In this document: positions 13,402-64,000 of the stretch, piece by piece | Position numbering within the stretch: the first letter of the stretch is position 1 | How the letters are laid out: each line of letters starts with the position of its first letter | Assembly (NCBI RefSeq): GCF_003704095.1 | Contig: NW_020847478.1 | Location: 1-64,000 of the forward strand | Origin: Pocillopora damicornis | Taxonomy: Eukaryota | Direction: 5' to 3' | Length of the DNA: 64,000 nt | The notes under the pieces: generated by a model | Told to the model about the DNA's origin: nothing | The model's input: the letters and a program-made list of their open reading frames with translations, nothing else | The model's database searches: none | Position numbers and translations under genes: made by a program

Positions 13402-16399
13402 ATGCAAATATTTTGTGTAGTAATCTTTCTGACAGTTAGAATGGACAGGACTGCCACTCATTTATTGTTACTCTTTTTTATACGTTTTCTTTTTCCTAGC
13501 CGACGCCAAGCCAGACAAATCCTTGCAAACCAACCGAATACTGGGTTGAAAAGGAAGATGGCTCACAAGAGTGTATAGCATGCGGAACTTGCCCAGAAGG
13601 ACAAGGTCTCTCAACGGAATGTGGGAGTTCTGAACTGCTGCCTTCTAATACCATGGTGAAGTGTTTGGCATGCACCAAAGGAGTTTCATTTTCCAGATAT
13701 GAAGATTCGTCCATTTGCCTTCCTTGTGCATCATGCTCTAAAGGTCAGGTGGTAGAACAAAGGTGCTCTCCCAAGTGGGATGTCAAGTGCGCAAATAAAT
13801 GTTCCAGCAAGGACAGGTACAATTATTATTACAATTATTCATTAATTGTCCCAGAATTGATCATTGCAAGCGTTTTAATTGTTAGGTGAATATACTCGGA
13901 GTCTTTGGTGATTATTTTGTACGTGCAGTGTGTAGTTCTAATACTGGAACAGGCATAAACTGTGGGAATCGTTAAAGATAACTTACCACCAATACTGATA
14001 TCTCTAAGCCATCATAATATTTACAGAAAATTTTATGTTAGTTCAGTGGCGTGCCAGCGATTATATAAAAGTTATCACTATTTCACTGGTTAGGTATTAT
14101 GATATGGACAAGGGGGACTGTTTTAAGTGCTCAAGATGCTGTGGCGATGATAGAGATGTGGTGGTAAAAGAGTGCAAAGAGAAGTTGGGAGATGGCTCAA
14201 ACATGGTTTGTTCATTCGACAGCAGTGTGAACCGCTGTGGCAAAACAACGCCTCAACCAACAACTATCATTAGCCATGTCGACCCCAAACACGATGGTCC
14301 TTATACCACTCAAAAAAGTGATCATTCCACTAAAGCGAACAATCGGACAACAACTGTTATTCTTGTGGTGATAATAGTTGTTTTCGCTTTTTGTGTTTGT
14401 TCATGCGTTTTCAAGAAGAGACTGGCACAGATGTTGAGTTGCTGTTATCGTACTGTTGAAGTGGAAGACCATCATGATTTATCAGTCATGGAGGACGGAT
14501 CATCGACTGACGGAAAGGGTGGTAAGACTGTGTAGCTTTCCTTTGAGTTCGTTCTAATAGTGTCCATTATTCAAATATTGACCTGGATGAAACTCATGAA
14601 AAATAATGTTGGAAAGTCTGGCCACTAAGATGTACCCAATTGAACCAACAAAGCTCTCAGTATCTCCATAGAATTCTCCTCTCAAAAGTGATCTTTTAGG
14701 GTGTAGTTTCATTTAAGACGTCGTCGGTTGATAGCCTAACAATATTCAAATGTAAGCATACTTCATATAGCAACATAGGAAAAGTAAGCATTCGGGAACA
14801 ACATTTCTCTTTATCTCTTTTGCTAACTACAACAGTCCTCGAGATGCAGGTTGATTAAATTCCACTCACTTTTGTAGGTGATTAACCCTCTCTTGTCAAA
14901 CTCATTAATCAAACCGACTCTGTGACATGCCCCAGACTTTGCGTTGGCAGATACTGATTCTGTTACATTCATTCATGTCTGAAATGCTTCCTCCAAGCCT
15001 GTCACATTCATAGTTTTGTATATTATAATCTTTCCAGTAGAAAATGCTAAAGAAAACTTAGAAGAGAGTGATGAGTCATATGAGTTAGGAGAAGTTCATT
15101 CAGTTGCAGAGGAACCCTTGTTGAAAGAGGTATGCAAAAGAATAGTTTTCTACCTTAAAGTTCATCATAGGTTAAGTTTACACGCGGTATATTAAGCTCT
15201 TCCCGTCAAATGCATAGCTATTGGACCTCTACGACCAGTTCAATCGTCAAGCATATTTAGAACTTAAGCATTGCCTTGAGTCTGAGGCATTGTCAGAAAT
15301 CGAGATACAAATGAGGTACAACTAAATATGTGAAGATATTAAAATTGAGAAAAGATGTGCTTTAACATATGCATGCTCAATGAAAAATTCAATTTTCCAG
15401 AGTACGTTGTAACTTATGAAGGAGCCGTAAAATTGCCCTTCATTTATGCTCAGGTACACACTTTAATGATCCTCTTAACTTAAAGAGTTTGAAAATAGTC
15501 ATAAATTAATTTTAGTTCCTCTTTGTTAAAGGGTATTCCCGAAATCTTGGACGACACTGTAACCACCAAAGAGAAAGGTGTGATAGAACTTCAGTTGGAT
15601 AGAGACTTTGAACTTACTGTCAGGGGAATTTATTGTTAATCGGGACTTTTAAATTCTTGATTTTCATCAACCAAAAGCCATTGGTGCCATTAGGGACAAG
15701 ATAGCCCGATATTAATTTATCTGTTTGAGTAAATACTATTTAATCGGAGGTTTCTTATCTTCATGATTTGTAACACCTAATAGTTTCAAATACTATGCAG
15801 CGATTAAGAGTTGGAACAAAATGAACCCAGATAAAGGGACAAATTTCTTGCAAACGTTCTACTCTTTGATATAGCTGCTTCACCAATAGAGACCCTTAAT
15901 GGAAAAGATAAAAGCTAAAAATGATTTGAGACAGAGGAGTGGAAAACTCTCTGGGTGGTTGGAAGAAGACATAAGATGTTATTTTGTTTGGGGGGGGGGG
16001 AGAACCAAGAAATGAAATGTAATACGAGTAAACCCCTATGATGGAGGTTGTAATGTTGTCTATGTTTGACTGTCTTTCCTTATTGCAGGTTCCAAGCTAC
16101 TTAGCAGCTTGTTGGATAGTGAGTCTTACCAGTACTTAAAGAAAATCTGTGATCGTTTGGACACAACCATGGCAGGCGCTGGTGACTATCGCGATGTCTG
16201 TTCGTATTATGGTATTGATCGTTATGGGATTGCCTCAATTTATGAGAAGCAGAGGGATGGGCCATCCAGAGCTCTAATCGATTACTTGGCAGCCACACAT
16301 GAACAGCTAACAGTGGCTGAGTTTGTAACTGTGGTGAGAAAAGTAGCAAAGAGAGGTGATGTCGCAAAGCTGTTAGAGGAGTATGAAGAGGAGTTGTGA
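13402..16399 (+). CDS. G2: TNFR-superfamily death receptor (signal peptide, CRDs, TM, DD). Exons 13402..13434 (upstream in-frame ATG at 13315 possible), 13500..13816, 14094..14521, 15038..15129, 15532..15577, 16089..16399
   Basis: MQIFCVVIFLT|PTPSQTNPCKPTEYW..CIACGTCPEGQGLSTECG..CLACTKG..CLPCASCSKG..CFKCSRCCGDD; TM VILVVIIVVFAFCVCSCVF; DD exon ICDRLD..GDYRDVCSYYGI..GPSRALIDYL..LTVAEFV..RGDVAKLLE. GT-AG introns with consistent phases (0,2,1,0,1). Confidence 0.85.
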
Positions 16400-18269
16400 G
16401 AAAGAATGGCAAGGTTTTTTCATTACCGATAGTGTCATTTTCATTTCTTGTTCTACTAAATCAGTATTTGAGATCGTTGTAATTCTAAAGAGTTGCATTT
16501 TCTGATATAAATTTTATGTAGCCTCGGGTACTGAAAAGGACCCAAATTTAAAGGAGATGTCTTGATTAGCATGAATTCAATGTTATCTTCAATTTATTAA
16601 TGATTTAAATGTTAGAGCTATTTATGTACTTGCAAACGTAAATTTTAGATTACTGATTGTCTTGTTGTTTCACGTTGAATCGTTAACAAGGCAAAAGAGG
16701 GCAAACACCTTTTCTACGCTGCTTTGAGGCTAGTTACCTGTTACCTACCGCGAGGACACTGAATCCACCAGATAGTCCTTACCGGAAATGAAATCCCTTC
16801 CAAGTAGTTTTTAGATTCTAGTAGTCTCCAATTAAGCGTCGACAAATCAAAACCATAACAACCACACTGGCTAAAAAAAACAACGGTTATCAGAAACCAA
16901 TGAGAACTTAAAGTAAACGCAGGCAAACCACTTGAAGCGCGAGATAACGTGGGTGTCCGACTTGCGATTGGCTACTTCTTTGCATTTAATTGTTTGGTAC
17001 GTTAGCGCACCGAACGAAGTAAAGCAAAAAAATAATGCAATCCCATATTTTTTTGACGATGATTAAACTGAACAAAATTTTTTACTTTGTTCTGTTTAGA
17101 TCTAAGCACCATTAAGGCACTCATTTAAGAGCAATTTTTTTCTCATTTTTAGTTATATTTTTTAAATCACTGGTTAGTTTTTATTTTTGTATACCAGAAA
17201 CGCTACTTTTTTCGTTTTGTGTCAATGATAGAGTTATGTTACGTATTTAACAGTTAAAGATGTATTTGTGGTCACCCTTGCAAATGTTTCCGTGTTTAAT
17301 TTGATTTTAAGGGAGCGGAGAGGTCAAACCGCATTAAAAGTTTCATGCAGTAACAAATATTTTCCTTTAACCTCCAAGCTGAATCGTATTAGTTATTCAG
17401 CTTTCTAACTGCTAAGAAGTGCTTGGAGTGTCATGTCCGTTTACGTCAATTGTTTTTGCGTTTGAAATCGTTATCGTTATCATATACTATGTCATTTGTC
17501 TGCGAGAGTCACATTTTCGTATCTGAAACGGAATTGCAGAAGTTGCATAGCAAGTGTTTTTTCTTTTTCAAAGTCTTTCATTTCTATCCGCCGCTGAGAT
17601 AAAGATGCAACCCAGACGTTGTCTGACCGAAACTAATTTTGATTGATCTTCCCTAATCCTCTTATTATATTATGAGGATTAATGTCTTCTTAATAGGGAG
17701 TTCAAAGAACTAATGATGATATTATGAATAAAAACTATGAGGGTACTTTTTACCTTTTGTTTTCTTTGCAACCAAATCTCTGATTCCACGTTGCGAAGTG
17801 TTTGAGAATCCTGCGTGCGAATTTACGGTTGATATCCATGAAGCCTGGAAATATTCGAGTTTTGATTTTTGTGGATTTTCCGGTTGTCCTTAATCCCCAT
17901 TAATCCCCATAGGAAAAGAGAAAATTTCGCCATTTACCTTCAATTAAACCAGGGTGGATCAAGTGTCTTTCGTATTATTGAGGTCGAAATCGCTTGAAAT
18001 GCTCATTCATGACTAATCTACCATGTCGCTTTCCTCTCTATAGCTCAACAGGTTAGACAATTTTACAACATCAGGGTTCTTTCCTTGTTCGCGTTGTACT
18101 CATCAATATTAATTTCCAGAAATTTGGGCGATCTCGAACCATAATAAGTAGTTTGCTTAAACATACACGTGCTAATTCCCGTCTCGACATGGAGGCGACG
18201 TGGGCTGCCGCAACTTCCTGCTTCATTTCTTCACATGCCCATGGCTAAGCTTGGGGAAATTTCTCAACT

Positions 18270-19110
18270 CTTGATTACAGAGGAATTTGAACGTATCCAA
18301 AAAAGCCTTTCATTCCAAATTTGAAGAAAACCTATACGTAAACATGACTTCAAACGCTGCTATAAGTGAGTTATCCACTCATACGAAAATGCTTTCGGAC
18401 ACGTGTTCACACATACTTTTTGCCGCGGGAAATGCTACGGAAAACAGAATGTTCATTGGCGTGTTTAATCAAAGTTGAATATCGCGTTTTTCTGGTGTTA
18501 GCCGACCCGTGGTAACACATAGAAAATACTGTGTTACAACAACCTAGAAAATCAGTGGAAACATTTAGGAAAACGGAATGTTAGCCCGGGTAATGCTTGC
18601 GCTGAAAAACAAGTGTCGAATATCACCTCATTAACCGCTTCAGGAAAACACTAAACAGACACCGTGATAACCCACGCTGGATAACCGATGTAGAACTGTC
18701 AACAAAACACAGTGTACAGATGAGTTTTCCAGGCCCTGGAAGCCCTGTCGTTAACGCTATGTTTTCCCATAGTGAATATGCCACGCGTTCTCCGCAAAAA
18801 TGAAAACGAAATTTGAACGAGACATTTTCCCGGTATTCACTGTTTGGTTTAATTGTGGGAACGAGGGAATTCTTTTGCCGTGTAACGTTCAAGTTAAATA
18901 GATCGACTTCACATGTAGCGTAGCCTCGTGGAAATGGGAGTAAGATCCAAAATTCTCCTGCTTATGGTGTGGACGCGTTTCGATCAGAACTTGGAAATTG
19001 AGGGAGGATGTAAAGCAAGGCCTGGTCGAAAGAGTAGAACTGGGTCAAAAGAGAGTTGGTGAGGGTGATTGCGTTCGCATTCAATGGAGTCTTACAAATC
19101 CGTGCTAAAT
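18270..19110 (+). pseudogene. Possible decayed Mab-21/cGAS-like (cGLR) nucleotidyltransferase fragment; inverted copy at ~36300..37040 (-)
   Basis: Across frameshifts: ILFAAGNATENRMF../KVEYRVFLVL resembles hGSx(9-13)EhDh. In the partner copy, ILDAEKLVSNIINHFRKTL..GPGTPAMNVMF..QICSAFSV resembles the cGAS/Mab21 core. The catalytic residues are degenerate. Confidence 0.3.
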
Positions 19111-19197
19111 TCTGAGATTCTCCTTTCGATTGACTGATACCACCTCCCACCCCTTTTTGTTTCACCGTGTCTTGTTACCGTTGGGATTTCTTTGGGA

Positions 19198-19205
19198 TGA
19201 CGTCA
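19198..19205. promoter_or_regulatory. Perfect CRE palindrome TGACGTCA ~430 bp upstream of the G3 ATG
   Basis: Retained in the inverted copy (36178..36185). The variant TTACGTCA lies at a similar distance upstream of paralog G5 (46066..46073). Confidence 0.45.
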
Positions 19206-19631
19206 ACTGCCTTATTTTGGCAGTATAAGATTTCCCACATGGTCTAATCCAGTACCAACCGGTAGGCATTTTGCTTGTCAGCATATTTTTAAACATCTCG
19301 CTACTGAGCGGAACGAATGAGCTTCTACCGATTCTAATCATTACAAGATATTATTCATGTATCAAAAGTCTCAATTTGTTCAGCAAGATTCGACAAAAAA
19401 TTAAATGAAGACTGCACCGTAAGTATAGTGTTACTGTTCTTTCAAAAATCTCTTGATCGTTAAACGATTTGAAACCGGCATACTGTGACCTGTCTCGTTA
19501 CACAGTATCTTTTCATATCTCAAGCTTTGTAACTGTGCAAATTGCTTTACTTGACGAGAGTTTGCTACTTCGGACATAATATCCACGGAAACCTTGCCAA
19601 GTCGAGTGGACTGGAGAAGTGCTCCTGAACC

Positions 19632-20958
19632 ATGTGCTCCGTTGGAATATTAACGAAGACCGTAATTATTGCAGTTGTGGTAAGTTCACATTCTGTTTAT
19701 TCCAGGCTGGCAAAATTCAAGCGATGGATTAAATGCATATTGTTTCATTCAGATAGTTTGTGTTATAACCAGTAGAGAACGACGGAAATAATTATTTCTT
19801 GATATTGCTACCTATGACATGTGAGGTAAATTTCATGACATAGACCGGTAGTATTGAGCATATGAGATCGACTTCCCTTTTCCCTTATTTTTCCCTTTGA
19901 AATGCTAACTGTATACTGATTACCATGGGATAAGGAAAAAACGCTGATCTGGCGGTAACTGAGGAGGTAGACACTGTTCCAATAAAAGAAAATAAAGGTT
20001 CCTTCTTTTTCAGCTCCAAGCAAAAGGAAGAGATTGCTTGGGCTGTAAAGGTGATGAGATCACCTGGCGTAGGGATAAACCAGGAAAGAAAAACACGTGT
20101 ATACCGTGTATCGATTGCCCGGACGGAACTGAGCCGTCGATTCCTTGCGGAGGGACCGCCAAATATGGAACACACTTACATTGTGAGGCATGCAGGCAAG
20201 GAACCTATTCGGACAATTATGGAAAAGGGCCCTGTAAGCCATGCTCTCTATGCTCCGTTGGACGTACAGTGACAAGGAACTGTTCTGCGACGAAGAACGC
20301 TCAGTGTGGCTCTTGTAAATACGGCTATTACCAGAAAGTTGTCATCATGAACCTGCTTTTCTATTGCCTTCCGTGTTCTGTCTGCTGTGGGGACGGTAAA
20401 GATAAGGTAGAGAAGCAGTGCACAGATCAAGGGCTTCCAAGTCAACAACATTGCAAATTCAGAACCGCGCCCAGCTGTCAACTGTTGCGGACAACTTCAA
20501 AGATCACATCGAGCACTCCATTTCTAGGAGCAAATCATACGGCAAAGAAAGGAACAAGCCCAAAGGGACAATCAGAGGAAGCTTCTTCAGTTCCTTCATC
20601 AAGAACACCGAAGCCGTATGCAAGAACCACTGCCATAACCGCAAAACGACATGAAAAGTTAGCTGCTTCCCAGTATGGAACAAGTTCAGCCTTAGAAGGA
20701 TTCCACGGCAATAAATCAAAGGGATCTTTTTCCGATAGAAGTGTCGATATTAATAATGGCAATGGTATTGTCGTTTCTCCTTTGTATGGGATTCCCGTTA
20801 TTTTCATTGCAATAATTGTAATTGTTCTTAAGCGGAACAAGCTTGCAAGCTTCTTTGAAAGGACGAGGTGTGGTCCTATCCTGAGGTGTAGAGACGCTGA
20901 ACTCGGTAAACAAATAGAGAGTACTTGGTTGGATGTTGTGCCATTAGGAGGTAGGTGA
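19632..20958 (+). CDS. G3: TNFR-superfamily receptor (TROY/XEDAR-like CRDs, TM) with no visible DD exon. Exons 19632..19679 and 20014..20950 (donor) or ..20958 (read-through stop)
   Basis: Signal exon MCSVGILTKTVIIAVV|gtaagt; acceptor ttttcag|LQAKGRDC. CRDs CIPCIDCPDGTEPSIPCG..CEACRQGTYSD..CKPCSLC..CSATKNAQCGSCKYGYY..CLPCSVCCGDG; TM YGIPVIFIAIIVIVL. Phase-1 donor G|GTAGGT at 20951. An N gap follows at 21518. Confidence 0.8.
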
Positions 20959-21273
20959 ATTTGCACTATTTTGAACACGGTCAAATGATGGCAAATTACT
21001 CAGTCGTTGAGACACTTTCTTAAAGGACTAAGCAGTCAGGACAAAAACGCCGGGGAAGACGGTGATTAAAAAAATTTATATATATTTTTAACAAGAATTT
21101 CGTGAATGGCTAGATTTGTGAACTAGTCTTTTGGCGCTAAGCCTCAACTTACGAATAACGTACGTAAACAGTGCTGAGTTCCAAATGGAAACTTAAATAA
21201 TTTTTTGTCGAGGCTTCCGTTATCAGCTTTGACTCGTCCTTGGTGCAGTCGCTTTCGTAGTTTGCTTTAAGTC

Positions 21274-21350
21274 CCATTTTTGTGCCGCCAGCCAGAATTA
21301 TTGGCGGAAAGTGCCATTTTTGTACCGCCAGCCAGAATTATTGGCGGAAA
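21274..21350 (+). repeat. 40-bp tandem duplication
   Basis: ccatttttgt(g/a)ccgccagccagaattattggcggaaa occurs twice. Confidence 0.85.
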
Positions 21351-21673
21351 TTAGACCTTTAATATCAATCTATAGGTACAGCTGTTTCATGTTTAAGACA
21401 CAGATAATGACATAGATTGCTAAAAGCGAGGAGTGGTGAACATGTGCTTTGTGTACGACTTGACAAAACGGGTTTCATTTCAATTATCAATTAAATGCTA
21501 ACAGTGTAATATTTTCGNNNNNNNNNNNNNNNNNNNNNNNNNNNNNNNNNNNNNNNNNNNNNNNNNNNNNNNNNNNNNNNNNNNNNNNNNNNNNNNNNNN
21601 NNNNNNNNNNNNNNNNNTTTCCTCTGCTACACTTTCGTCGGTGTAATAACAGTAAAGGATAATATTGTAATAA

Positions 21674-22407
21674 TCATAAGAAATAGGACTGGTACCTTTC
21701 ATTTTCGCTCATTATAGAGAGCGACTGCAACATATAATTTNNNNNNNNNNNNNNNNNNNNNNNNNNNNNNNNNNNNNNNNNNNNNNNNNNNNNNNNNNNN
21801 NNNNNNNNNNNNNNNNNNNNNNNNNNNNNNNNNNNNNNNNNNNNNNNNNNNNNNNNNNNNNNNNNNNNNNNNNNNNNNNNNNNNNNNNGCCATATCCAGC
21901 GACAGACTCCTTCGCATGCCGTTTCCTCTTCTTTTACCTCTGAAAATACTTTGAGAAGGCCGGTGCCTTTACCACCAACTTCGGCGGGAACAGGATGGGT
22001 ATCTACAATAAAGAAGCAGTCGCTTGCAAGGCCAATTATGAAGACTAATGGCTCACAGGTGTAGATGGCAACGCAAAAATCTTNNNNNNNNNNNNNNNNN
22101 NNNNNNNNATGGACAAGGTTAGTCTGCCCTTTTTGGGAGAATACGAAGTCGCTCTCCAAGATTTCTTCGGAAAAATCGTACTTGCCAACTTCAGCACCAA
22201 CACTCCGTATCAGTTGGTACGCCGACAGAACATCGTAGAGTTCCTCACAATTCCTGTATGGATTTACCACTCGGGGGAACTCTGTGATGACATTTTCTGC
22301 CACTTCGCAAATATTTTGCCACAGCTTCTTACTACCCCCAATTGCTTCTTCTCGGAACTTACGTATTTCATGAGCAATTTTTACACATAGAAAGGCACAG
22401 GCATTAG
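21674..22407 (-). CDS. Papain-fold cysteine protease domain resembling herpes-tegument-like deubiquitinases (C76/VTD type), partial and interrupted by gaps; probably transposon cargo
   Basis: NDGTNACAFLC (catalytic Cys) and FFIVDTHP (Asp-x-His). No stop codons in the sequenced parts. An inverted paralog lies at 24084..24652. Confidence 0.55.
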
Positions 22408-22979
22408 TTCCATCATTATCCGGAAATTNNNNNNNNNNNNNNNNNNNNNNNNNNNNNNNNNNNNNNNNNNNNNNNNNNNNNNNNNNNNNNNNNNNNNNNN
22501 NNNNNNNNNNNNNNNNNNNNNNNNNNNNNNNNNNNNNNNNNNNNNNNNNNNNNNNNNNCATTATAAGTTTATTTTAGCTTGTTTTATCTGATGTTCGAGG
22601 GCTTTTTTAGGAGACAAGGACGACAAGACTGTCACCACGCATTGGAAATATTCCACTTTCCCAACAAATACTTCTCCAAATTCCTTTTTGCCNNNNNNNN
22701 NNNNNNNNNNNNNNNNNNNNNNNNNNNNNNNNNNNNNNNNNNNNNNNNNNNNNNNNNNNNNNNNNNNNNNNNNNNNNNNNNNNNNNNNNNNNTGAAGAAG
22801 TTACGCGCTTCTGATTACGCACCCGTCGCACACCCCTTTCTTACGAACAAGAGATCTTGTGTCGCATTTGCGCAAGTTCCACGTGTTGCAAGAAGTTTGC
22901 TTTTTGCTCGCTTTGTGTGCTGTTGAATCAGGCAGGATTATGGCTTTTCAGTTTCCTTTTCTTGAGCCCGACCATCATC

Positions 22980-23860
22980 TTTTCAGGTCTGCCAGTCTGT
23001 AATTTCAAGTGTTTGACAAACAAGGAAATCATTCATAAGGGTGCTTATGGTACTTTGTTCACTGCTGACTGGCAGACTCTTCCTGGTGCGGGTGGGAAAT
23101 CGGCCGCCGCGGAGAAAGTCGTCGCTAAGAAATTGCTCGACGAGGACATACTGGATAAGAAAACGTTTGTAAAGGAAGGAAGAATCATTCAAGAGTTGAA
23201 ACATCCAAACATTGTGAAGTTCAAGGGAATCTGCAATAACCCGTTTGCCCTCATTCTCGGATATGTGTATTTCGATTTCCAACCATTCGGTTTCGAGTCA
23301 AAAGTTAGCTTCCTTGCAGAATTTCTTGGTGTTCTTGAGTGCTCCGATTGCGACGGTTTCGTCACCCCTCAAGTCATCTCCAACATTTTCAAGGACGTAG
23401 CATTGGGTCTTAAACATCTACGCGTCAAAAGTGTCGCCCATCGTGATTTAAAGCCGGCTAACATCTTGGCCACCAATCAATACTACTGTTAACTGACTGC
23501 AAGTGATCAGAGAGAAGTCTGGGAACAGTGCCCTTTGATTTTACCGCTGGCATAGGGAGAAAATCTTAAGAGAGCCGACATTTGGTCTTTAGACATGACC
23601 CTGTTTGTATTACTAAACCCTTGTGTCAGGTATCCTTACTGAGATACAAGCAGCCTTTAGAGAGGGGGAAACACCTCTGCAAGCACTAGGGGATTTTTCC
23701 AGTCATGACAAGAAAATTGCCAACAGAGCCATGCAAATATCAGATTTGGCTTAAGTGTGCTCCATTTGACCCTGATAAACAGCCAAAGGTTGAAGAAGTG
23801 GTTTCCATGATCAGCCAGGGATCTACCATGTTTACTCTTAATATTCCCTTGAAGGTTAGT
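22980..23860 (+). pseudogene. Protein kinase pseudogene (intronless), immediately upstream of a protease domain
   Basis: GAYGTLF (Gly loop), VVAKKL, FVKEGRIIQELKHPNIVKFKG, VAHRDLKPANIL, and later ADIWSL. The DFG/activation segment is deleted. There is a stop at 23490, plus frameshifts. Confidence 0.8.
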
Positions 23861-24083
23861 CATTTGCATTTTTTAGAAGGGAAATGTTTTTTAATCTTAT
23901 TAAGAGCGTCATCTTGTGAAAGGGTCATTAATATAACCCAGCCAGTCATTGAGCTTTGCAAATTTCCTGAAGAGTGCGAAGTGCACCGTGTAGGAAGTGA
24001 TTTAACAAAATTGAAGTTTGTTAAAATAAACCATTTTAACTTTGTGCAAAGAACCTTGTTCTTCTCTCTTACATGCGTCGCGC

Positions 24084-24652
24084 ATGCCTGTGCCTTTCTA
24101 CGCGTAAAATTGCTCATGAAATACATAAGTTCCACAAAGAAGCAATTGGAGGTAGTAAGAAGCTGTGGCAAATTATTTGCGAAGTGGCAGAAAAAGTCAT
24201 AACAGAGTTACTCCGTGTGTTAAATCCACACAGGAATTGTGAGGAACTCTACAATGTACTATCGGCGTACCAACTGATACGGAGTATTGGTCCTGAGATT
24301 AGCAAGTACGATTTTTCCGAGAGATCTTGGAGGGCGACTTCGAATTCTCCTAAAAAGGGCGGACTAACCTCGTCCATGCCTTATCTTCTATGTTATCGAA
24401 GAAAGATTTCTGCGTTGCCATCTACACCTGTGAACCACTGGTCTTCATAGTAGGCCTCGGAAGCGCCTGCTTCTTTATTGTAGACACTCATCCTGTTCCC
24501 ACTGAAGTTGGTGGTGAAGGCACCAGCATTCCAATAGTTTTTCCATGGGTAAAATAAGAGGAAACGGCATGCAAAGGAGTCTGTCGCTGGATATGGCAGC
24601 GCCTGCTTTTTAGAGGTGTAAAAAATAATACGTTGCAGTCGCTCCCTATATG
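24084..24652 (+). pseudogene. Second, decayed copy of the tegument-DUB-like cysteine protease domain
   Basis: ACAFL..KIAHEI..LSAYQLIRS..DFCVAIYTCEPLVF..FFIVDTHPVP..GVCRWIWQRL, with stops and frameshifts. It is an inverted repeat of 21620-22400. Confidence 0.7.
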
Positions 24653-26659
24653 AAAAGTACCAGTCCTATTTCTTATGATTATTACAATATTATCCTTTTC
24701 TGTTATTACTCTTACGAAAGTGTAACAATGGAAATGGATCAATATAGCGTGATGTCCAGGTAACTCCCTTTCGAACTGGGTATCCCCTAAACCGGAGAGA
24801 ACATCAGCAAATTTACCATCCATATATTTGAAATTAACTTTGAACGGGTTGTCCAATAGATGATATTGCGAAGGCTCGTTTTCAAGATAATTTTTCTTTC
24901 ACTTCGGCGTTTCTCTATCTTCGACTACTGACGAGCTGGGATTAGCAGAGAGAAATGTTATGCTATCCTATCATTTAAGAAAAACACAGCTGTAAGAATA
25001 GCTTGCTCTATTACCACCAACTTAAAGCCGAGATGCAGGTATTCATATACTGTGCGAGCATTATAGTGAATGTAGTTTGACTGAAAGCATGGTTTAGCTT
25101 TACTTTAAAGCGTCACTTGTAAAATCAGTGGTCGGTTTTCATCTTTTAAGACTAGCACTTTCCTGCACAAACCATTAAGTTAAATATATCTCAGATGTAA
25201 CTGTACTCATTCATGTCTGAACAGAAAAAAAGCTTATTTGGTTTACATTCCAACGAATGCAGTAACACTGAAACCCCAGCCACTCCACTACGGTAAAATT
25301 TTGTATTTTTTTCGGCAGTTACTGACTGATTATTGCAGAGTCAGTAAGAATTTTAAATGCACGAGATTTAAACTGCATAAATTCCATGTTGCCATACTTG
25401 ATACTGTAACATTTACAGGTGATTGCTCACCGATTGAAAACAGCGGTCCCAAAGAAAGTGTAGGAAGGGCAAAGCTACCTGTTCTAATGATTGTGATAGC
25501 GTTAGTTATGGCTCCGACGTAGTCCAAATCACAGAAAGATGGCAAAGGCCAGATAGAAGAGGAACTGTGAAAAATTCTGTGAGCATCAGTTTAGCGTCCA
25601 TGGGGAGAGATGAGAATGTGGATTAACTGAATGTTAAGGGTTCCACGGATGACACTATTTACAAAAAACTGGAGCAGTTTATAGTCTCGACCACGTAGAG
25701 CCAAAACGAATACATTCTCCAAGACCAAAGTCAACCTAAGTGCAGCCCGCGAGCTGGAAGAGGAAAACCAAGACGATAGCGGAATCCCTTCATGTTCCAA
25801 ATGACCCTCGAATAGGTCCACGTAAGTGCCAAAAAACTAAACGAAATTTTTGTTTTTCGGTTATTAACCTTTGTAACCTCCATTAGTACTGACGAGAATT
25901 CTCCACTAATTAGCTGTGCTGTGACTTATGCAGGCTAGCTAACTTATTAGTGCCTCCTTTACTTTGAACAGTCCTTCTTAAAAGTATTCTTAAGAAAACA
26001 GGGACACTGAGTTGTTGCCTTTCCGAATAGCATACACACGTCACATAGGAAGAGAATTGTTACATACTAATGATAGCGCCCACTGAACAAATCAATTTCT
26101 TTCTTGCATTTGGAAACCAGTAGGTTGACTGACGTCGAAATAGAATCGCTAGTGCTGTTACAACAAAAGAAACAAAACAAAAAAAAAGGCGGCGATGATG
26201 AGCTCGAAGTTGGCTCCGGCAATGATATCTACGATCCCTACAGCAATTAAGACGACTCTGAGAAAGCTCGGGAAGGTAAAGTAAGATTAGAAAAGTACGA
26301 AAAAAAAAGCAAACAAAAATGAAAAGTAAAGGCAACAGACTACAGTTTAGACGATGAATTTTGAGAGGTTGGAAAAAAGTTATGGGAGACCACAAGTTTA
26401 GTTTCCTCTCAACTGCCCAGAGCCGATCAGAATTGCGATTTTAAAAGAAACAGACGGTTTTGAAACACCTTACGTGTATCATTTTAAGAAGAGGTTTTGT
26501 ATAAATGTTTTATAATAGGTAGACGTTCATATAAGATATTTCTAAAATACAGTTTCGCACGAAGCATAATATATTTTCCCATAATGATAGAGAAAATGGC
26601 TGCAAATACAAGTATCAAGATTTTTTTTGCTTATGATTGGTGTTTCGTTTGTCTTTTTA

Positions 26660-31929: not shown

Positions 31930-33360
31930 TAACAGCTATGTGACCTCAACACTCCAGGTGGTATATTAAGGTACGTTGTTTGAACCGGTTTGACCATATG
32001 AATTTCGTGCAAAGCCTCAGGAAGCAATGTGAAGTATGCAAACGATGTAGATATGTGGTTAGTTTTACAGTTTGCAGGAAGCTACTAATTAACCTCTACA
32101 CGTTATACCGTCTGACATTTTAATAACCTATCGCCATAATTAACTTAAGGATTTCAGTAAATTAGTTTGCTTTAAGCCTTGTCTTAAAAGAACAAAAGAT
32201 GATTTTCTTTCAATCTGTTTCGGACAGGGAATGGGAGCCTGTGGTTATTTTCAAATGCATCAGTTTCGTCGCTGATGAGCTGGGGACGCCCGGAAAACAA
32301 TGTTTTATCAGGTTTAACCATAAGGCTCCGGTTTTCGAAAGGTAGATAACGCTACAAATAACTGTCTATCCTGTGAGTAGCGCAGTAAGTGTTGCTGACA
32401 TTTATCCGCTGCATAGCCACTAAATAGCGTTATCCGCTCGGACCCTGATAGAATTCAAGGGTCACGCAAATGAATCAGCGGACACGAGCAACAAGGACAT
32501 ACGTTGCTTTTACTCGCACAAGCCACTGCTTCAAAGAGGCCTTAGACGTAGCAAAGACAACAGACACCTTAATAGGGCGAAAAAGGAAGTCAGTTTTATT
32601 TAAAACACATTGCAAAACATTTTATCAACAAAGAACCGCCCCTGTGTAAATTGTCCCGANNNNNNNNNNNNNNNNNNNNNNNNNNNNNNNNNNNNNNNNN
32701 NNNNNNNNNNNNNNNNNNNNNNNNNNNNNNNNNNNNNNNNNNNNNNNNNNNNNNNNNNNGAAGATAAAAATCGGCCGATTTTAATTTTTAGCCAGAAATC
32801 ATCGGTCGTTTCTCAGGCGCAGGGCCTCTCAACAGCTATGTGACCCAAACACTCAAGATGATATATTTAGGTACGTTGATTGAACCGGTTGTTGACCATA
32901 TGTCTTTCGTGCAAAGCCTCAAGAAGCAATGTGAAGTATGGAAATGACGTAGATGTGGTTAGTTTTACAGTTTACAAAAAGCTACTAATTAACCCCAACA
33001 CGTTATACCATCTGACATTTTAATAACCTATCGCCATAGGTAGGTAACGCTATGAATAATTGTCCATCCTGTGAGTAGCGCAGTACGTGTTGCTGACATT
33101 TATCCGCTGCATAGCCACTAGATAGCGATATCCGCTCGAACTCTGATATAAATCGAGTGTCACACATATGAGTCAGCAGACACAAACAACAAGCCCATAC
33201 GTTGCTTTTACTCGCACGTGCCATTGCTTCAAAAAGGCCTTAGACGTAGCAAAGACAACAGACATATTAATAGGGCGAAAAAGGAAGTCAGTTTTATTTA
33301 CAAAACATTGCAAAACATTACATCAACAAAGAACCGTTCCTGTGTAATCTGTCCCGATGG
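31930..33360 (+). repeat. Diverged direct tandem duplication (~31930..32659 and ~32830..33360) spanning a 100-N gap
   Basis: aacagctatgtgacc..ggtacgttg..tgaaccggtt..gcaaagacaacagaca..aagaaccg..tgtcccga occurs twice. Copy 2 lacks ~200 bp. Confidence 0.8.
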
Positions 33361-34551
33361 AAAACCTACAAAGCTACATGCAACACAACTCATCTCGCAA
33401 CGGTAACAGTGACGCTCAATCTAGTTTCGTGTCATGAGCTTTAGCCGCCTTAGAATTGTAAAAGTGAGAAATGTATGTGGTCGTGACCCGTTCCTAATTG
33501 ATCTCGCTCATATTACAAATTCCGCCTTTCTTCAATACGAACCTTATGTGTCTAAAAATTTCACTTATTTATGAATGTATTCTTTCAAAAGTTCAACGAC
33601 ATCGTTCCTCAGTATATTCAGTGAAAGGGACTTCAAATCTTTTAAGGAAACCAGAACTACAAAAAGAAAAGGAAAATTACTGATATTTATGTTGTTAGAC
33701 TGGAAAAGAACGCTACGTTGAAAACATTAAGCTGGTAAACGGAGGAGAAACTGGTCACGGAGAAACGTCACGGTCTGAGTATCTGAGTTCTAATCCTACT
33801 TTGTACTGTCCTCTATTTTGTTCCCTTTGTGTTTATTCGAACTTGTTTATTTACTTATTTGAAGCAACTTTTTCTTTCAATAATTAATTTTGAGAACCAA
33901 ACCTATCACGAAAATATTACGCTGTTAGCATTTCATAAATAAACGAAATGAAACCTGTTTTGTCAAGTCTTACATAAGGTACATGTTCACCACTCCTCGC
34001 TTTTAGAAATCTTTGTCATTATCTGTGTCTTAAACATGAAACAGCTGTTCCTATAGATTGATATTAAGGGTCTCCCTTGGGATCTGCGACTTTAAGCAAA
34101 CTACGACAGCGACTGCACCAAGGACGAGTCAAAGCTGAGAACGTGAGCCTTGACAAAAAATTATTTAAATTTCCATTTGGAACTCAGCACTGTTCACATA
34201 CGTTATACTTAAGTTGAGGCGTAGCGCCGAAAGAGATAGTTAACGCATGTAGCCATTCGCGAAACTCTAGTTAAAAATAGAAATAATTTTTTTAATCGCC
34301 GTCTTCTCCTGTGTTTTTGTCCTGATTGGTTGGTCCTTTAAGAAAGTGTCTCAACGACTGAGTAATTTGCTGTCATTCGACTGTGTTCAAAATAGTGCAA
34401 ATGCACCTATCTCCTATCTCTAATGGCACAACATCCAACGGAGTACTCTCTGTTAGTTTGCCGAGTTCAGCGTCTGTACACTTCAGGATAGGACCACACC
34501 TCGTCCTTACAAAGAAGCGTGCAAGTTTGTTTCGCTTAAGAACAATTACAA

Positions 34552-35747
34552 TTATTGCAATGAAAATAATGGAAATCCCACACATAGGAGAAACGACAAT
34601 AACAGTGCCATTATTATTGTCGACGCTTCTCTCGAAAAAAGTCCCTTTGATTTACTGCCGTGAAATCCTTCTGAAGCTGAACTAGTTCCATGCTGAGAGG
34701 TAGGTAACGTTTCATTAGAGGAAAATGTCGCGTTTGTGGTTATGACAGTGGTTCTTGCGGACGGCTCCAGTGTTCTTGATGAAGCAGCTGAAGTAGCTTC
34801 CTCTGATTTTCCCTTTCGGATTGTTCCTTTCTTCGCCGTATGATTTGCTCCTAAAAATGACGTGCTCGATGTGATCTTCGAAGTCGTCCGCAACAGTTGA
34901 CAGCTAGGCGCGGCTCTGAGTTTGCAATGTTGTTGACTTGGAAGCCCTTGATCTGTGCACTGCTTTTCTAACTTATCTTTACTGTCCCCACAGCAGACAG
35001 AACACGGGAGGCAATCGGAAAGCAGGTTAATGGTGACAACTTTCTGGTAATAGCCGTACTTACAAGAGCCACATTGAGTGTTCTTCGTCGCAGAACAATT
35101 CCTTGTCACTGTACGTCCGACAGAGCATAGAGAGCATGGCTTACAGGGTCCTTTTCCATAATTGTCCGAATAGGTTCCTTGCCTGCATGCCTCGCAATGT
35201 AAGTGTGTTCCATATTTGGCGGTCCCTCCGCAAGGAATCGACGGTTCAGTTCCGTCCGGGCAGTCGATACACGTTATACACGTGTTTTTCTTTCCTGGCT
35301 TATCGCTACGCCAGGTGATCTCATCACCTTTGCAACCCAAGCAATCTCTTCCTTGTGCTTGGAGCTGAAAAAGAAGGAACCTTCATTTTGTTATTGGGAC
35401 AGTATCTTCCCCCTCTGTTACCGCCAGATAAGCGTTTTTTCCTTACCCTATAGTAATCAGCTTGTATACAGTTAGCATCTTAAAGGGAAAAATAGGGGGA
35501 AAGAGAAGTTGATGTCATATGCTCAATACTACCGGTGTATGTCATGAATTTACTTCACATGTCATAGGTAGCAATATCAAGAAATAATGATTTCCGACGT
35601 TCTCTGCTGATTGTAAAACAAACTATCTGAATTAAACAATATACATTTAATCCATCGCTTGAATTTTGCCCGCCTGAAATAAACAGAATGTGAACTTACC
35701 ACAACTGCAATAATCATAGTCTTCGTTAACATTCCAACGGAGCACAT
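34552..35747 (-). CDS. G3': inverted paralog of G3. Intact ectodomain, frameshifted before the TM into a tail-less hydrophobic C-terminus (candidate GPI-anchored decoy, or pseudogene). Exons 35747..35700, 35364..34552
   Basis: Exon 1 MCSVGMLTKTMIIAVV|gtaagt; ectodomain cysteines retained. A 1-bp deletion near 34642 (GGGA-CTTTTTT vs GGGATCTTTTTC in G3) gives ..SKGLFSREASTIIMALLLSFLLCVGFPLFSLQ*. The donor equivalent is mutated (GATAGG vs GGTAGG). Confidence 0.65.
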
Positions 35748-38056
35748 GGTTCAGGAGCACGTCTCCAGTCCACTCGACTTGGTCAGGCAAGGTTTTCGAG
35801 ATATTGTGTCCGAAATGGCAAACTCTATTCAAGTAAAGCAATTTGCATGGTCACAAAGCTTGAGATATGAAAAGGTACTTTATAACGAGACTGGTCACAG
35901 CATGCCGGTTTCAAATCGTTTAACGATCAAGAGATTTTTGAAAGAACAGTAACACTGTACTTACGGTTTAGTCTTTATTTAATTTCTTGTCGAGTCCTGC
36001 TGAACAAGTTGAGACTTTTGATACATAAATAATGTCTTGTAATGAAAAGAATCGGTAGATGCTCATTCGTTCCGCTCAGTAACGAGATGTTTAAAAATAT
36101 GCTGACAAGCAAAATGCCTACCGGTTGGTACTAGATTAGAGCATGTGGGAAATCTTATACTGCCAAAAAAAGGCAATTGACGTCATCCCAAAGACATCTC
36201 AACGGTAACAAGACACGGTGAAACAAAAAGGGTTGGGAGGTGGTATCAATCAATCGAAAGGAGAATCTCAGAATTTAGCACGAATTTGCAAGACTCCATT
36301 GAATGCGAATGCAATCACCCTCACCAACTCTCTTTTGACCCAGTTCTACTCTTTCTACCAGACCTTGCTTTACATCCTCCCTCAATTTCCAAGTTCTGAT
36401 CGAAACGCGTCCACACCATGGCTATACTAAATGTGAAGTCGATCTATTTACCTCAAAAATTACACCGCAAAAAATCCCTCGTTCGCCCACAATTTAGCCA
36501 AATAGTGAATGCCTGGGAAACGTCTTGTTCAAATTTCGTTTTCATTTTTACGGAGAACGCGCTGCATATTTGGTATTCATTATAGGAAAACATGACGTTC
36601 ATGGCAGGCGTTCCAGGGCCTGGAAAACTCATTGTACACTGTGTTTTGTTGACAGTTTTAAATCGGCTATCCAGCGGGGGTTATCACGGTGTCTGTTTAG
36701 TGTTTTCCTGAAGTGGTTAATGATATTCGACACTAGTTTTTCAGCATCAAGTATTTTTTCCCCTGATTTTCTAGTGTGCTGTAACACAGTATTTTCTATG
36801 TGTTGCCATGGGTCGGCTAACACCGGGAAAACGCGATATTCAACTTTGATTAAACATGCCAATGAAAATCCTGTTTTCCTGAGCATTTCCCTTGGTAACA
36901 AGTATGTGTGAATCCGTGTCCGAAAGCATTTTCGTATGAGAGGATAACTCACGTATAGCAGCGTTTGAAGTCATGTTTTCTTCAAACTTGGAATAAAGGG
37001 CTTTTTTGGATACGTTCAAATTCCTCTGTAATTAAGAGTTGAAAAATTTGCCCAAGCTTGGCCCTGGGCATGTGAAGAAATGAAGCAGGAAGTTGTGACA
37101 GCCCATGTCGTCTCTATGTCGAGACGGGAATTAGCACGTGTATGTTTATGCAAACAACTTATTGTAGTTCGAGATCGCCCAAATTTCGGGAAATTAATAC
37201 TGAAAAGTACAACGTGAACAAGGAGAGAACCCTGATATTGTAAAATTTTCTAACCTGTTGAGTTATAGAGAGGAAAGCTACACGATAGATTAGTCATGAA
37301 TGAGCATTTCAAGCGATTCCGACCTCAATAATACGAAAAACACTTGATCCACCCTGGTTTAATTGAGGTAATGTGCTTTTGGTGGAATTTTTCCTTTTCC
37401 TATGGGAACTTGTGGTGGGGATTAAGGACAACCGGAAAATCCACAAAAATCAAAACTCGAAAATTTCCCAGCTTCATGGATATCAACCGTAAATTCGCAG
37501 GATACTCAAACAATTCGCAGCGTTAAATCAAAGATTTAGTCGCAAAGGAAACAAAGTTTAAAAAGTACCCTCATAGTTTTTATTCATAATACCATCATTA
37601 AGTAGACATTAATCCTCATAATATAATACGAGGATTAGGGGAGATCAATCAAAATTAGTTTCGGTCAGACAACGCCTGGGTTCTATCTTTATCTCAGCGG
37701 CGGACAGAAATAAAAGACTTCGAAAAAAGAAAGTACACTTGCTTCGCAACTTCTCCAATCCTGTTTCAAATACGAAAATATGCCTCTTGCAGATACATGA
37801 CATAATACATGACAACGATGACGATTTCAAATGCAAAGACGAGAAACAGTGAACGTAAACGGAAATGTCATCCCAAGTAGAGAGGTCAAGCATACATCCT
37901 AATCCAGGCCAACATATAAAATTAAAATGGAATCGAATTAGGGAATTTCCTTTGCAGGCGACAAAGACAACGGTATACTGCAAGCTGAAAGTGAAAAGAA
38001 ATCCCCCGACCAAGACTAAAGAGAGGAGGAAAATCGTCGTGCAGAGAAGAGGGAGA

Positions 38057-62672: not shown

Positions 62673-62794
62673 CTTAAAGACTTTCGCAAAGATTGTTAAC
62701 TCGTGCTCTGTGCATGTGAGTATACGAAAACATTTTTAGACAGGAATGATTGAGAATGATTTTTTGATGCAGCCCTTTTGATATGTAAATTGGC

Positions 62795-63720
62795 AAAACT
62801 AAACACTGTAGGACACCATAAGAAATGACGTTCCATAGCAGAAAAGCGTGACAGTTCATCCGTTCTGTGTATATTTTTACTAAAATGTTATTTAGGTTGT
62901 TGTCGTTGTCGTTGTTGTTTTTATGTTTGTAGAACACGGCCCATGGTTTGAAATGTAGAACCAAGATGTAGGCAGGTTTCCTAGAATTGTTCAGTGTCCA
63001 GGCATTGTCAACATATAGTAAGGAATTGATAGCAGCTGTTTTCTTTTAGTTAGTTTTGGGGAAAGAATTTAAAGAAGCATTTGTCAATACGTATTTACCA
63101 TAGCTTTCCATCATTTAATGTAGTTAAATGCTTAGGATTCTGCAATCACCCCCTTCAGATTACGGGTTTTTTTAATAGTTTACGAGAGTAGCGTTGTAAC
63201 GCTAGAAGCCTTATCAGTATACACTGGTATATGTATTGTGAGAAACAAACAAGCATATAAACAAACAAAACTAAACACTGTAGGACACCATGAGAAATGA
63301 CGTTCCATAGCAGAAAAGCGTGACAGTTCATCCGTTCTGTATAAATTCTTTACTCAAATGTTATTTAGGCTGTTGTTGTTGTTGTTGTTGTTTTTATGTT
63401 TGTAGAACACGGCCTATGGTTTGAAATGTAGAGCCAAGATGTAAAGAGGTTTCCTAGAATAGTTCAGTGTCCAGGCATTGTCAACATATGGTAAGAAATT
63501 GATAGAAGCTATTTTCTTTTAGTGTGTTTTAGGGAAAGAATTTAAAGACACATTCGTCAATAAGTATTTATAATAGTTTTCCATCATTAAATGTAGTTCA
63601 ATGCTTAGGATTCTGTAATTACCCCTCGGATTACGGGTTTTTTATACTTTACGAGGGTAGTGTTGTAACGCTGGAAGCTTTATCAGTATACTTTGATACA
63701 TATATTGTGAGAAACAAACA
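62795..63720 (+). repeat. ~470-bp direct tandem duplication just downstream of G7
   Basis: aaactaaacactgtaggacaccat..gaaatgacgttccatagcagaaaagcgtgacag occurs at ~62795 and ~63268. Each unit ends ..attgtgagaaacaaaca. Confidence 0.9.
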
Positions 63721-64000
63721 CGTAAACAAACAAACAACAACACAGCAAAAAGGATTACAGGGGATATTTATCACCGATATAATTTAAACAGTGAAAGATC
63801 AAGGTTCATTAATTATTTTCTTCGCAAAAAGAACGCATTACGGTATTTTGAGGAATCTGTAAAAACTATTTAACTGATAAATGTAAACATTCATTTTTGG
63901 TAATGGCTTGATAGCGCCATATCTATTTGGTTGTATTTAAACCATTGATAAATCCTTAGTAGAAGCATGAAGCCGAGTGCTATTTAAAATAAGGTCTGTG

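Follow-up and report, generated by a model that had tools for sequence, protein, structure and literature searches.

The TNFR gene cluster and the G3' copy

The window analysed here comprises 64,000 nucleotides of the coral Pocillopora damicornis (contig NW_020847478.1, assembly GCF_003704095.1) and consists of A+T-rich eukaryotic DNA with 10 N gaps. Six-frame translation and Pfam identify a cluster of genes of the tumour necrosis factor receptor (TNFR) superfamily, most of which have a separate death-domain exon. One of them, G3 on the forward strand, has an inverted duplicate on the reverse strand, named G3'. This copy has lost a single base and now ends in a new hydrophobic C-terminus, a candidate signal for attachment of a glycosylphosphatidylinositol (GPI) anchor. 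The non-coding substitution divergence between G3 and G3' is 9-11%. The two copies and the parts of G3' are as follows.

33909-39195, reverse strand: inverted duplicate block with its counterpart at 15028-21517 (self-BLAST, tblastn)
19632-20952, forward strand: sister copy G3, with ATG at 19632, exon 20014-20950 and live donor GT at 20951-20952
35965-36112, reverse strand: 5' untranslated exon; RNA joint 35965 to 35824 in runs X15 and X17; upstream limit not fixed
35700-35824, reverse strand: signal exon with ATG at 35747, 16 codons and phase-0 donor GTAAGT; RNA joint 35700 to 35364 in X15 and X17
34900-35364, reverse strand: end of the signal peptide and TNFR cysteine-rich region, 155 codons with 20 Cys after codon 9
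34651-34899, reverse strand: Ser/Thr-rich stalk (39% S+T), with three N-x-S/T sequons in the allele of the window
34648-34650, reverse strand: candidate omega residue, Ser239 in exon-peptide numbering and Ser255 in the precursor, placed by published geometry rules
34641-34642, reverse strand: site of the one-base loss relative to G3 base 20725
34552-34641, reverse strand: new-frame C-terminus with a spacer of 7-8 residues, a 21-residue hydrophobic run from 34617 and stop TAA at 34554-34552
34409-34410, reverse strand: dead splice donor, AT in place of the GT of G3, about 140 nt beyond the new stop
33620-33658, reverse strand: former acceptor followed by the 37-nt remnant (stump) of the death-domain exon, both within the present 3' untranslated region (UTR) (tblastn, translation against paralog G4, RNA contigs)
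33271-34551, reverse strand: 3' UTR including the retained ancestral intron, with AATAAA at 33298; 3' end approximate

The 16-codon signal exon is hydrophobic, splices in frame and resembles that of G3, with a short hydrophobic core; the X17 contig covering it shows 0 differences from G3'. The cysteine-rich region matches PF00020 with 51.5 bits against a cut-off of 29.4, which places the protein in the TNF receptor superfamily. The cysteines of its cysteine-rich domains (CRDs) are invariant across a 26-sequence alignment. Solved-structure matches at E of 0.001 or below are limited to three chains, all of p75NTR/TNFRSF16 (E 6e-7). The AlphaFold model is of low confidence, with a mean predicted local distance difference test (pLDDT) score of 42 and a helix at 245-269 among its better-predicted parts. 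An ESM Atlas search with the exon peptide returned TNFR clusters below 0.9, which serve as leads only, and the nearest cluster is mostly cnidarian. The same search with the tail gave no usable match.

The single-base loss

Pairwise alignment to G3 shows that G3' lacks one base directly after the Gly codon at 34644-34642, although the loss may also be placed within the T run next to it. A further difference upstream is an in-frame indel of 12 nt. Translation of 35364-34552 gives 270 codons ending in ..GSKSKG-LFSREAS-TIIMALLLSFLLCVGFPLFSLQ-stop, which reproduces exactly the C-terminus given in a preliminary description of this DNA for a 1-bp loss near 34642. That description had also reported an intact signal exon, acceptor and set of CRD cysteines, and these are present (ATG 35747, donor GTAAGT, all CRD cysteines). 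The loss is assigned to G3' as the derived copy, because at this site the paralog G4 and 15 orthologous loci from other corals align with G3 without a gap.

A protein search recovered three G3' clusters at 93-95% identity (11, 182 and 2 members) and a G3 cluster at 83%. From the three clusters, 28 G3'-type proteins of European Nucleotide Archive (ENA) assemblies were listed (11 of 11, 15 of 182 and 2 of 2 members), which may include repeat assemblies of one sample. The number of members in a cluster was not taken as a count of alleles, as kinase proteins are mixed into the G3 cluster (7 of 15 listed). The full new tail is found in 25 of the 28 listed proteins, a tail 10 residues shorter in two, and one protein ends ahead of the site; the old frame does not occur among them. 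The 27 tails represent 14 variants in roughly three haplotype groups. Among the tail alleles (34552-34600; P0036, P0039, P0004 group), 10 of 28 run two residues beyond the stop to a second stop. A query with stalk and tail recovers no cluster beyond the three of G3' and that of G3. A scan of Joint Genome Institute (JGI) metagenomes yielded 33 loci, all from other corals and none of G3 or G3' type, with a best full-length identity of 40-44%.

The loss adjoins a run of six T, and the window is interrupted by its N gaps, as would suit an assembly or homopolymer error, or a G3' that is the other haplotype of G3. However, 27 of 28 listed proteins and 4/4 RNA runs share the same frame, both copy types are present in all four runs, and 77-87% of G3' words are contained in 14 DNA or untyped runs from four studies. 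An assembly or homopolymer error was rejected on the shared frame, and the artefactual explanation as a whole has a negligible probability. The preliminary description would have fallen with an assembly error or a silent gene. Its claim survives on both counts, as the indel is common to many assemblies and G3' RNA contigs are present and spliced.

Transcription and splicing

RNA was examined in four runs, one per study, from six RNA runs listed. Contigs covering at least 34540-34804 span the indel in all four studies, without a gap and with 0-9 further letter differences. Contigs of G3 type and G3' type co-occur in every run. Two joints with minus-strand GT..AG borders, 35965-35824 (skipping 140 nt) and 35700-35364, are carried by G3'-type contigs in X15 and X17. 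Across the dead donor, G3'-type contigs are unspliced (X15, 34562-33634 with one difference; X19, 34512-34045). A joint from 34420 to 33658 in X15, X18 and X19 is attributed to G3 mRNA, because the contigs bearing it carry G3 letters. G3' contigs end at 33271 in X17 and at 33187 in X15, although contig ends cannot fix the end of the RNA.

Two further X17 contigs depart from this pattern. One joins the signal exon (35700) directly to the death-domain acceptor (33656), an instance of exon skipping. The other joins 34496 to sequence like that at 32803-32832, which may be a splice within the 3' UTR or a deletion.

Loss of the signalling end

In the old frame, G3 encodes a transmembrane helix, after which come a basic stop-transfer stretch (K-R-N-K) and the donor at 20951. 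The G3 death-domain exon itself is absent from the window sequence, and its expected position coincides with the N gap 21518-21617. In G3', the death-domain exon of G4 matches by tblastn only at 33669-33613. The sequence from 33656 onward represents the beginning of the death-domain exon: 12 codons match G4 before the sequences diverge. Two X17 contigs depart from the window at 33620 and, in the reading frame of the stump, encode D-T-Y-T-K-V-W. The counterpart in G4 is E-T-Y-E-K-V-W, and the letters for D-T-Y-T-K-V-W are absent from the window. From these sequences we infer that a whole G3 death domain is hidden in the gap and that G3' retains a 37-nt stump.

A death-domain fragment is also found elsewhere in the duplicated block. 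At 38060-38242, tblastn identifies a 61-codon partial copy, 79% identical, of the death-domain exon 16070-16396. This fragment (38242-38060) belongs to the neighbouring gene and travels in the same block as G3'.

G3' is severed from signalling in three ways, namely by the frameshift, the dead donor and the truncated exon. The loss of signalling is not due to the frameshift alone, because only the 37-nt stump of the death domain remains. With its stop at 34552, G3' does not encode the helix and subsequent cytosolic death domain of a death receptor, and it has no signalling domain, as expected of a decoy. The earlier proposal that one deletion makes the decoy is correct in that the deletion is real, but the same copy also carries the dead donor and the death-domain truncation, the latter absent from that proposal. 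The mutation of the downstream donor had been recognised as well: GT at 20951-20952 in G3 corresponds to AT at 34410-34409 in G3'.

A stop codon well upstream of an exon junction, according to the 50-55-nt rule, is the usual trigger of nonsense-mediated decay. A live donor would place the new stop about 140 nt upstream of the junction, and loss of the donor may have been useful, beyond being harmless. Escape of the mRNA from junction-dependent decay is proposed because the dead donor puts the stop in the last exon.

A candidate GPI signal

The GPI signal layout described in PMC2571997 consists of small residues from omega-1 to omega+2, a spacer from omega+3 to omega+9 and a hydrophobic part from omega+10, with no strict consensus. 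According to 10.1101/838680, G, A or S predominate at omega+2, and it is the hydrophobic tail that governs NetGPI calls. In G3', the best candidate omega residue is Ser239 in a K-S-K-G context, with Gly241 at omega+2 in 25/28 sequences. The alternative is Ser237, two codons upstream, which has Ser239 at its omega+2; Ser237 to Lys240 are invariant. The spacer reads L-F-S-R-E-A-S, and the hydrophobic run starts at residue 249 or 250 (omega+10 or +11). This run lacks D, E, K and R in 14/14 tail variants, and the last 20 residues have a mean Kyte-Doolittle value of 1.5-2.1 across all tailed sequences. The end combines a small omega residue and G, A or S at omega+2 with a polar spacer, a terminal hydrophobic tail and the absence of a cytosolic tail.

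Other features of the end fit a GPI signal less well. Lys occupies omega-1 and omega+1, where small side chains are expected, and the propeptide is long (31-33 residues; 31 from Ser239). Glu is present at omega+2 in 3/28 sequences, which leaves Ser237 as the fallback, a Pro lies in the middle of the tail in 12/28 sequences, and the two shorter listed proteins stop 10 residues early. Overall, the layout suggests that the G3' tail is probably a GPI anchor signal, provided that the protein is functional.

Alternatively, the tail of a functional, signalling-dead protein could stay uncleaved and form a C-terminal membrane helix, giving a type I protein without a cytosolic domain and with the same decoy logic. 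A run of 21 hydrophobic residues can span a membrane, the modelled helix in this region is among the better-predicted parts of the low-confidence model, and both the omega context and the propeptide length are imperfect for cleavage. However, no basic residues follow the helix, and the mid-tail Pro together with the allele shorter by 10 residues would fit a disposable signal better. An uncleaved helix is considered unlikely.

Selection on G3'

In the CRDs, G3 and G3' differ by 15 synonymous and 12 non-synonymous changes over 155 codons, a ratio of non-synonymous to synonymous change (pN/pS) of 0.24 (Fisher p 0.0002). No other part gives a significant value. The stalk has a ratio of 0.58 and the new-frame tail one of 0.83 (p 0.72), while the old frame gives 1.37 in the tail and 0.86 past the stop. 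Among these parts, constraint is seen in the CRDs of the ectodomain, with stalk and tail not significant. On the G3' branch, seven synonymous and five non-synonymous CRD changes were counted (pN/pS 0.22, binomial p 0.009), with 2 of the 27 changes unassigned and the branch polarised by 14 outgroup sequences, which are distant.

Among 29 G3' sequences, 29 of 146 CRD positions vary, with 0 at the 20 cysteines (P 0.008). When the two sites explicable by exchange with G3 are left out, P is 0.012. The G3' CRDs do not show the neutral evolution expected of a transcribed pseudogene, and by these counts the cysteine-rich region is under purifying selection. Constraint after the frameshift is suggested because allelic variation should post-date the shared frameshift.

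These data bear on a further explanation, namely that G3' is a young transcribed pseudogene, its tail being an accident of T-rich transmembrane DNA and its product inert or degraded. A single copy with three lesions would be in keeping with this, as would the neighbouring duplicate 42676-43502, which is likewise broken by indels. The tail is moreover polymorphic with no measurable selection, and frameshifts often retain hydrophobicity (PMC7084103). By contrast, the synonymous excess on the G3' branch and the lack of any cysteine change among alleles are unexpected for a pseudogene. The ATG, the signal exon and both upstream splice events are intact, a single frameshift is common to the three tail haplotype groups, and GPI-like ends are rare among possible indels, as described in the next section. 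A pseudogene appears unlikely on this evidence.

Origin of the hydrophobic frame

A near-identical hydrophobic end is already encoded in the same (-1) frame of G3. Among 1872 possible single-base indels in exon 2 of G3, 84 produce a GPI-like end with intact CRDs, and all 84 are -1 changes inside an 85-nt stretch. Single-base indels gave no GPI-like end in four paralogs of the window or in nine orthologous loci (10 tried). When G3 was recoded synonymously, the same loss led to a GPI-like end in 356 of 20000 recodings. The rule for a GPI-like end was a crude filter of our own, set with the observed tail in view.

The idea that any TNFR helix yields such a tail on frameshift was rejected, as 0/15 sequences did so with a -1 change and 0/15 with a +1 change at the equivalent place. 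Over all scanned positions, the result was 0 across 13 genes. Frameshift-preserved hydrophobicity is a general property that helps, but it is insufficient alone to explain the G3' tail.

Another view concerns the origin only. The tail may partly be the ancestral helix frame, with an older compensating pair of frameshifts in G3 and a deletion in G3' that restored the hydrophobic frame. Orthologue helices begin with R-[VI]-I-[KM]-[AG], and a 10-column orthologue profile scores 13.0 in the G3' frame, 9.2 in the same frame of G3 and 3.4 in the G3 coding frame. Compared with synonymous recodings of G3, the profile P is 0.009 for the G3' frame and 0.055 for the same frame of G3. MAFFT also aligns the new tail onto the orthologue helix, and no relative has such a hidden frame. 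On the other hand, frameshift-aware alignment brought no gain at costs of 5, 8 and 12, and at a cost of 3 the gain was below that of 442/500 recodings. DNA alignment favours in-frame gaps, with the closest orthologue, P0008, known from protein and not from DNA. A restored ancestral frame is accordingly judged quite unlikely.

The helix region of G3 has features of its own. It is four codons longer than those of the orthologues, and its first half (20745-20830), with Asn, Gly, Pro and Tyr, fits the orthologue profile poorly.

Proposed function

The favoured reading takes G3' to be a recent copy of a coral death-domain TNFR that is expressed but dead in signalling. Its product would be GPI-anchored and would compete with G3 for ligand or poison its oligomers; a probability of about 0.5 is assigned to this reading. 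The signal peptide would carry the protein into the endoplasmic reticulum. There, GPI transamidase would read the 21-residue hydrophobic end, which lacks a charged cytosolic tail, cut at the Ser of K-S-K-G and add the anchor. The CRDs, nearly identical to those of G3, would recognise the same TNF-family ligand as G3 but pass on no signal. The tail would have been present beforehand in the -1 frame of the ancestor's transmembrane DNA, so that the deletion exposed a complete end, and the stop in what became the last exon would spare the mRNA from decay. More tentatively, the lineage may have gained a GPI-anchored TNF decoy by the one-base exposure of a hidden anchor signal, with donor loss shielding the mRNA and the copy spreading to tune G3 death-receptor signalling.

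Besides the features of the tail mentioned above, several points weigh against this reading. The contigs give no expression level, strand or proof of a single continuous mRNA. The intact G3 death domain is deduced from one 22-letter loose end in two contigs of one run. Tail selection is not measurable: 10/28 tail positions vary, compared with 29/146 CRD positions, and the test has no power. The CRD constraint may in part pre-date the frameshift or reflect gene conversion with G3, and the distance of the outgroups affects the polarisation of the branch. The filter for GPI-like ends is crude, and hydrophobicity often survives a frameshift in membrane proteins (PMC7084103).

The protein could also be made and matter without being a decoy. 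It might be shed or secreted, present ligand as a co-receptor, or act in reverse signalling via membrane TNF. Phospholipases can shed GPI proteins (PMC13212111), and decoys may have other functions (PMC10445540). However, near-identical CRDs beside a death-domain sister would form the paired-receptor pattern expected of a competitor, and a role other than that of a decoy is held to be decidedly unlikely.

Comparison with known systems

Human DcR1 (TNFRSF10C, TRAIL-R3) is held by a GPI anchor and has neither a membrane-spanning nor an intracellular domain (PMC10445540). Like G3', it has a TNFR ectodomain, no intracellular domain and death-domain relatives in adjacent positions. The anchor has been demonstrated for DcR1 (PMC10445540), whereas that of G3' is predicted. 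There is no sign of orthology, and no TRAIL-receptor chain is among the three solved-structure matches. In addition, the candidate anchor signal of G3', unlike that of DcR1, is a shifted frame of transmembrane DNA. The preliminary description had called G3' convergent with DcR1. This applies to the architecture only, as the mechanism is closer to that of the CEACAM GPI signals, which derive from a transmembrane exon (PMC2832619).

According to PMC2832619, transmembrane exons of CEACAM genes gave rise to GPI signals several times independently; in Old World monkeys, the change was a single-base deletion followed by a stop. One pig protein, CEACAM60, is released by phospholipase C (PMC13212111). 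Human CEACAM5-8 and pig CEACAM60 resemble G3' in being duplicates of a signalling receptor in which a small deletion or stop turned the transmembrane exon into a GPI signal. They differ in belonging to the immunoglobulin family instead of the TNFRs and in their demonstrated release by phosphatidylinositol-specific phospholipase C. Furthermore, the CEACAM tail described there is the old helix cut short by a stop directly after the lesion, whereas all 29 residues of the G3' tail are new-frame. By these analogies, G3' parallels DcR1 in form and the primate CEACAMs in origin.

The coral Acropora digitifera is described as having 40 TNFRs, 13 of them with a death domain (PMC4979521). This expansion shares the superfamily and the gene-cluster setting with G3'. 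The same source reports that coral TNFRs respond to heat stress and lists the role of invertebrate TNFRs without a death domain as an open question. In term look-ups of the accessible texts, GPI is not mentioned in PMC4979521, and neither GPI nor decoy is mentioned in 10.1101/2024.07.27.603686 and PMC9897584. No literature on a GPI-anchored or frameshift-derived coral TNFR decoy was found in the sources covered, which include few subscription papers, and supplementary gene lists may already hold the gene. Duplication and a subsequent frameshift have been proposed to yield new sequence whose hydrophobicity profile is preserved (PMC7084103). That study is a proteome-wide computation, whereas G3' is one natural case, transcribed and shared among assemblies, with 13 relatives that lack such an end.

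If the favoured reading is correct, invertebrates would have in G3' a counterpart of DcR1, and the gene would illustrate a gain of function by frameshift in nature. It would also be a datable natural example of a frameshift that did not inactivate its gene but created a targeting signal. Annotation pipelines would label such genes as pseudogenes or homopolymer errors. G3 and G3' form a clean pair for decoy testing, as their ligand-binding parts are near-identical, only one of them has a signalling end, and both are transcribed.

Other features of the window

Another TNFR gene also has an inverted duplicate, 42499-43502 against 30144-29076, which is pseudogene-like and provides a natural control for G3'. 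It has a 69-nt deletion near the start of the CRDs and a frameshifting 7-nt deletion at about 43181. Similarity stops at about 43501, ahead of the death-domain exon.

At the start of the window (1-4579), a TNFR gene encodes ZU5 (756-1355) and death (4220-4579) domains, which gives a TNFR ectodomain an intracellular layout like that of UNC5. The pairing of TNFR and ZU5 is also found in one Nematostella protein, which turned up in a search for longer relatives and is uninformative for G3'.

Directly after G3, among N gaps, lies an element at 21618-24734 with nested inverted repeats (123 bp, 82%; 516 bp, 84%). It encloses a protein-kinase open reading frame (ORF) at 22815-23489, and near-identical kinase proteins occur in many assemblies. 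Direct repeats are present at 31931-32659 and 32831-33357 and at 5861-6816 and 9857-10802, and an inverted pair at 62794-63268 and 63266-63737. The ORF 50578-51015 has a weak DUF6451 match and is a retroelement fragment by appearance.
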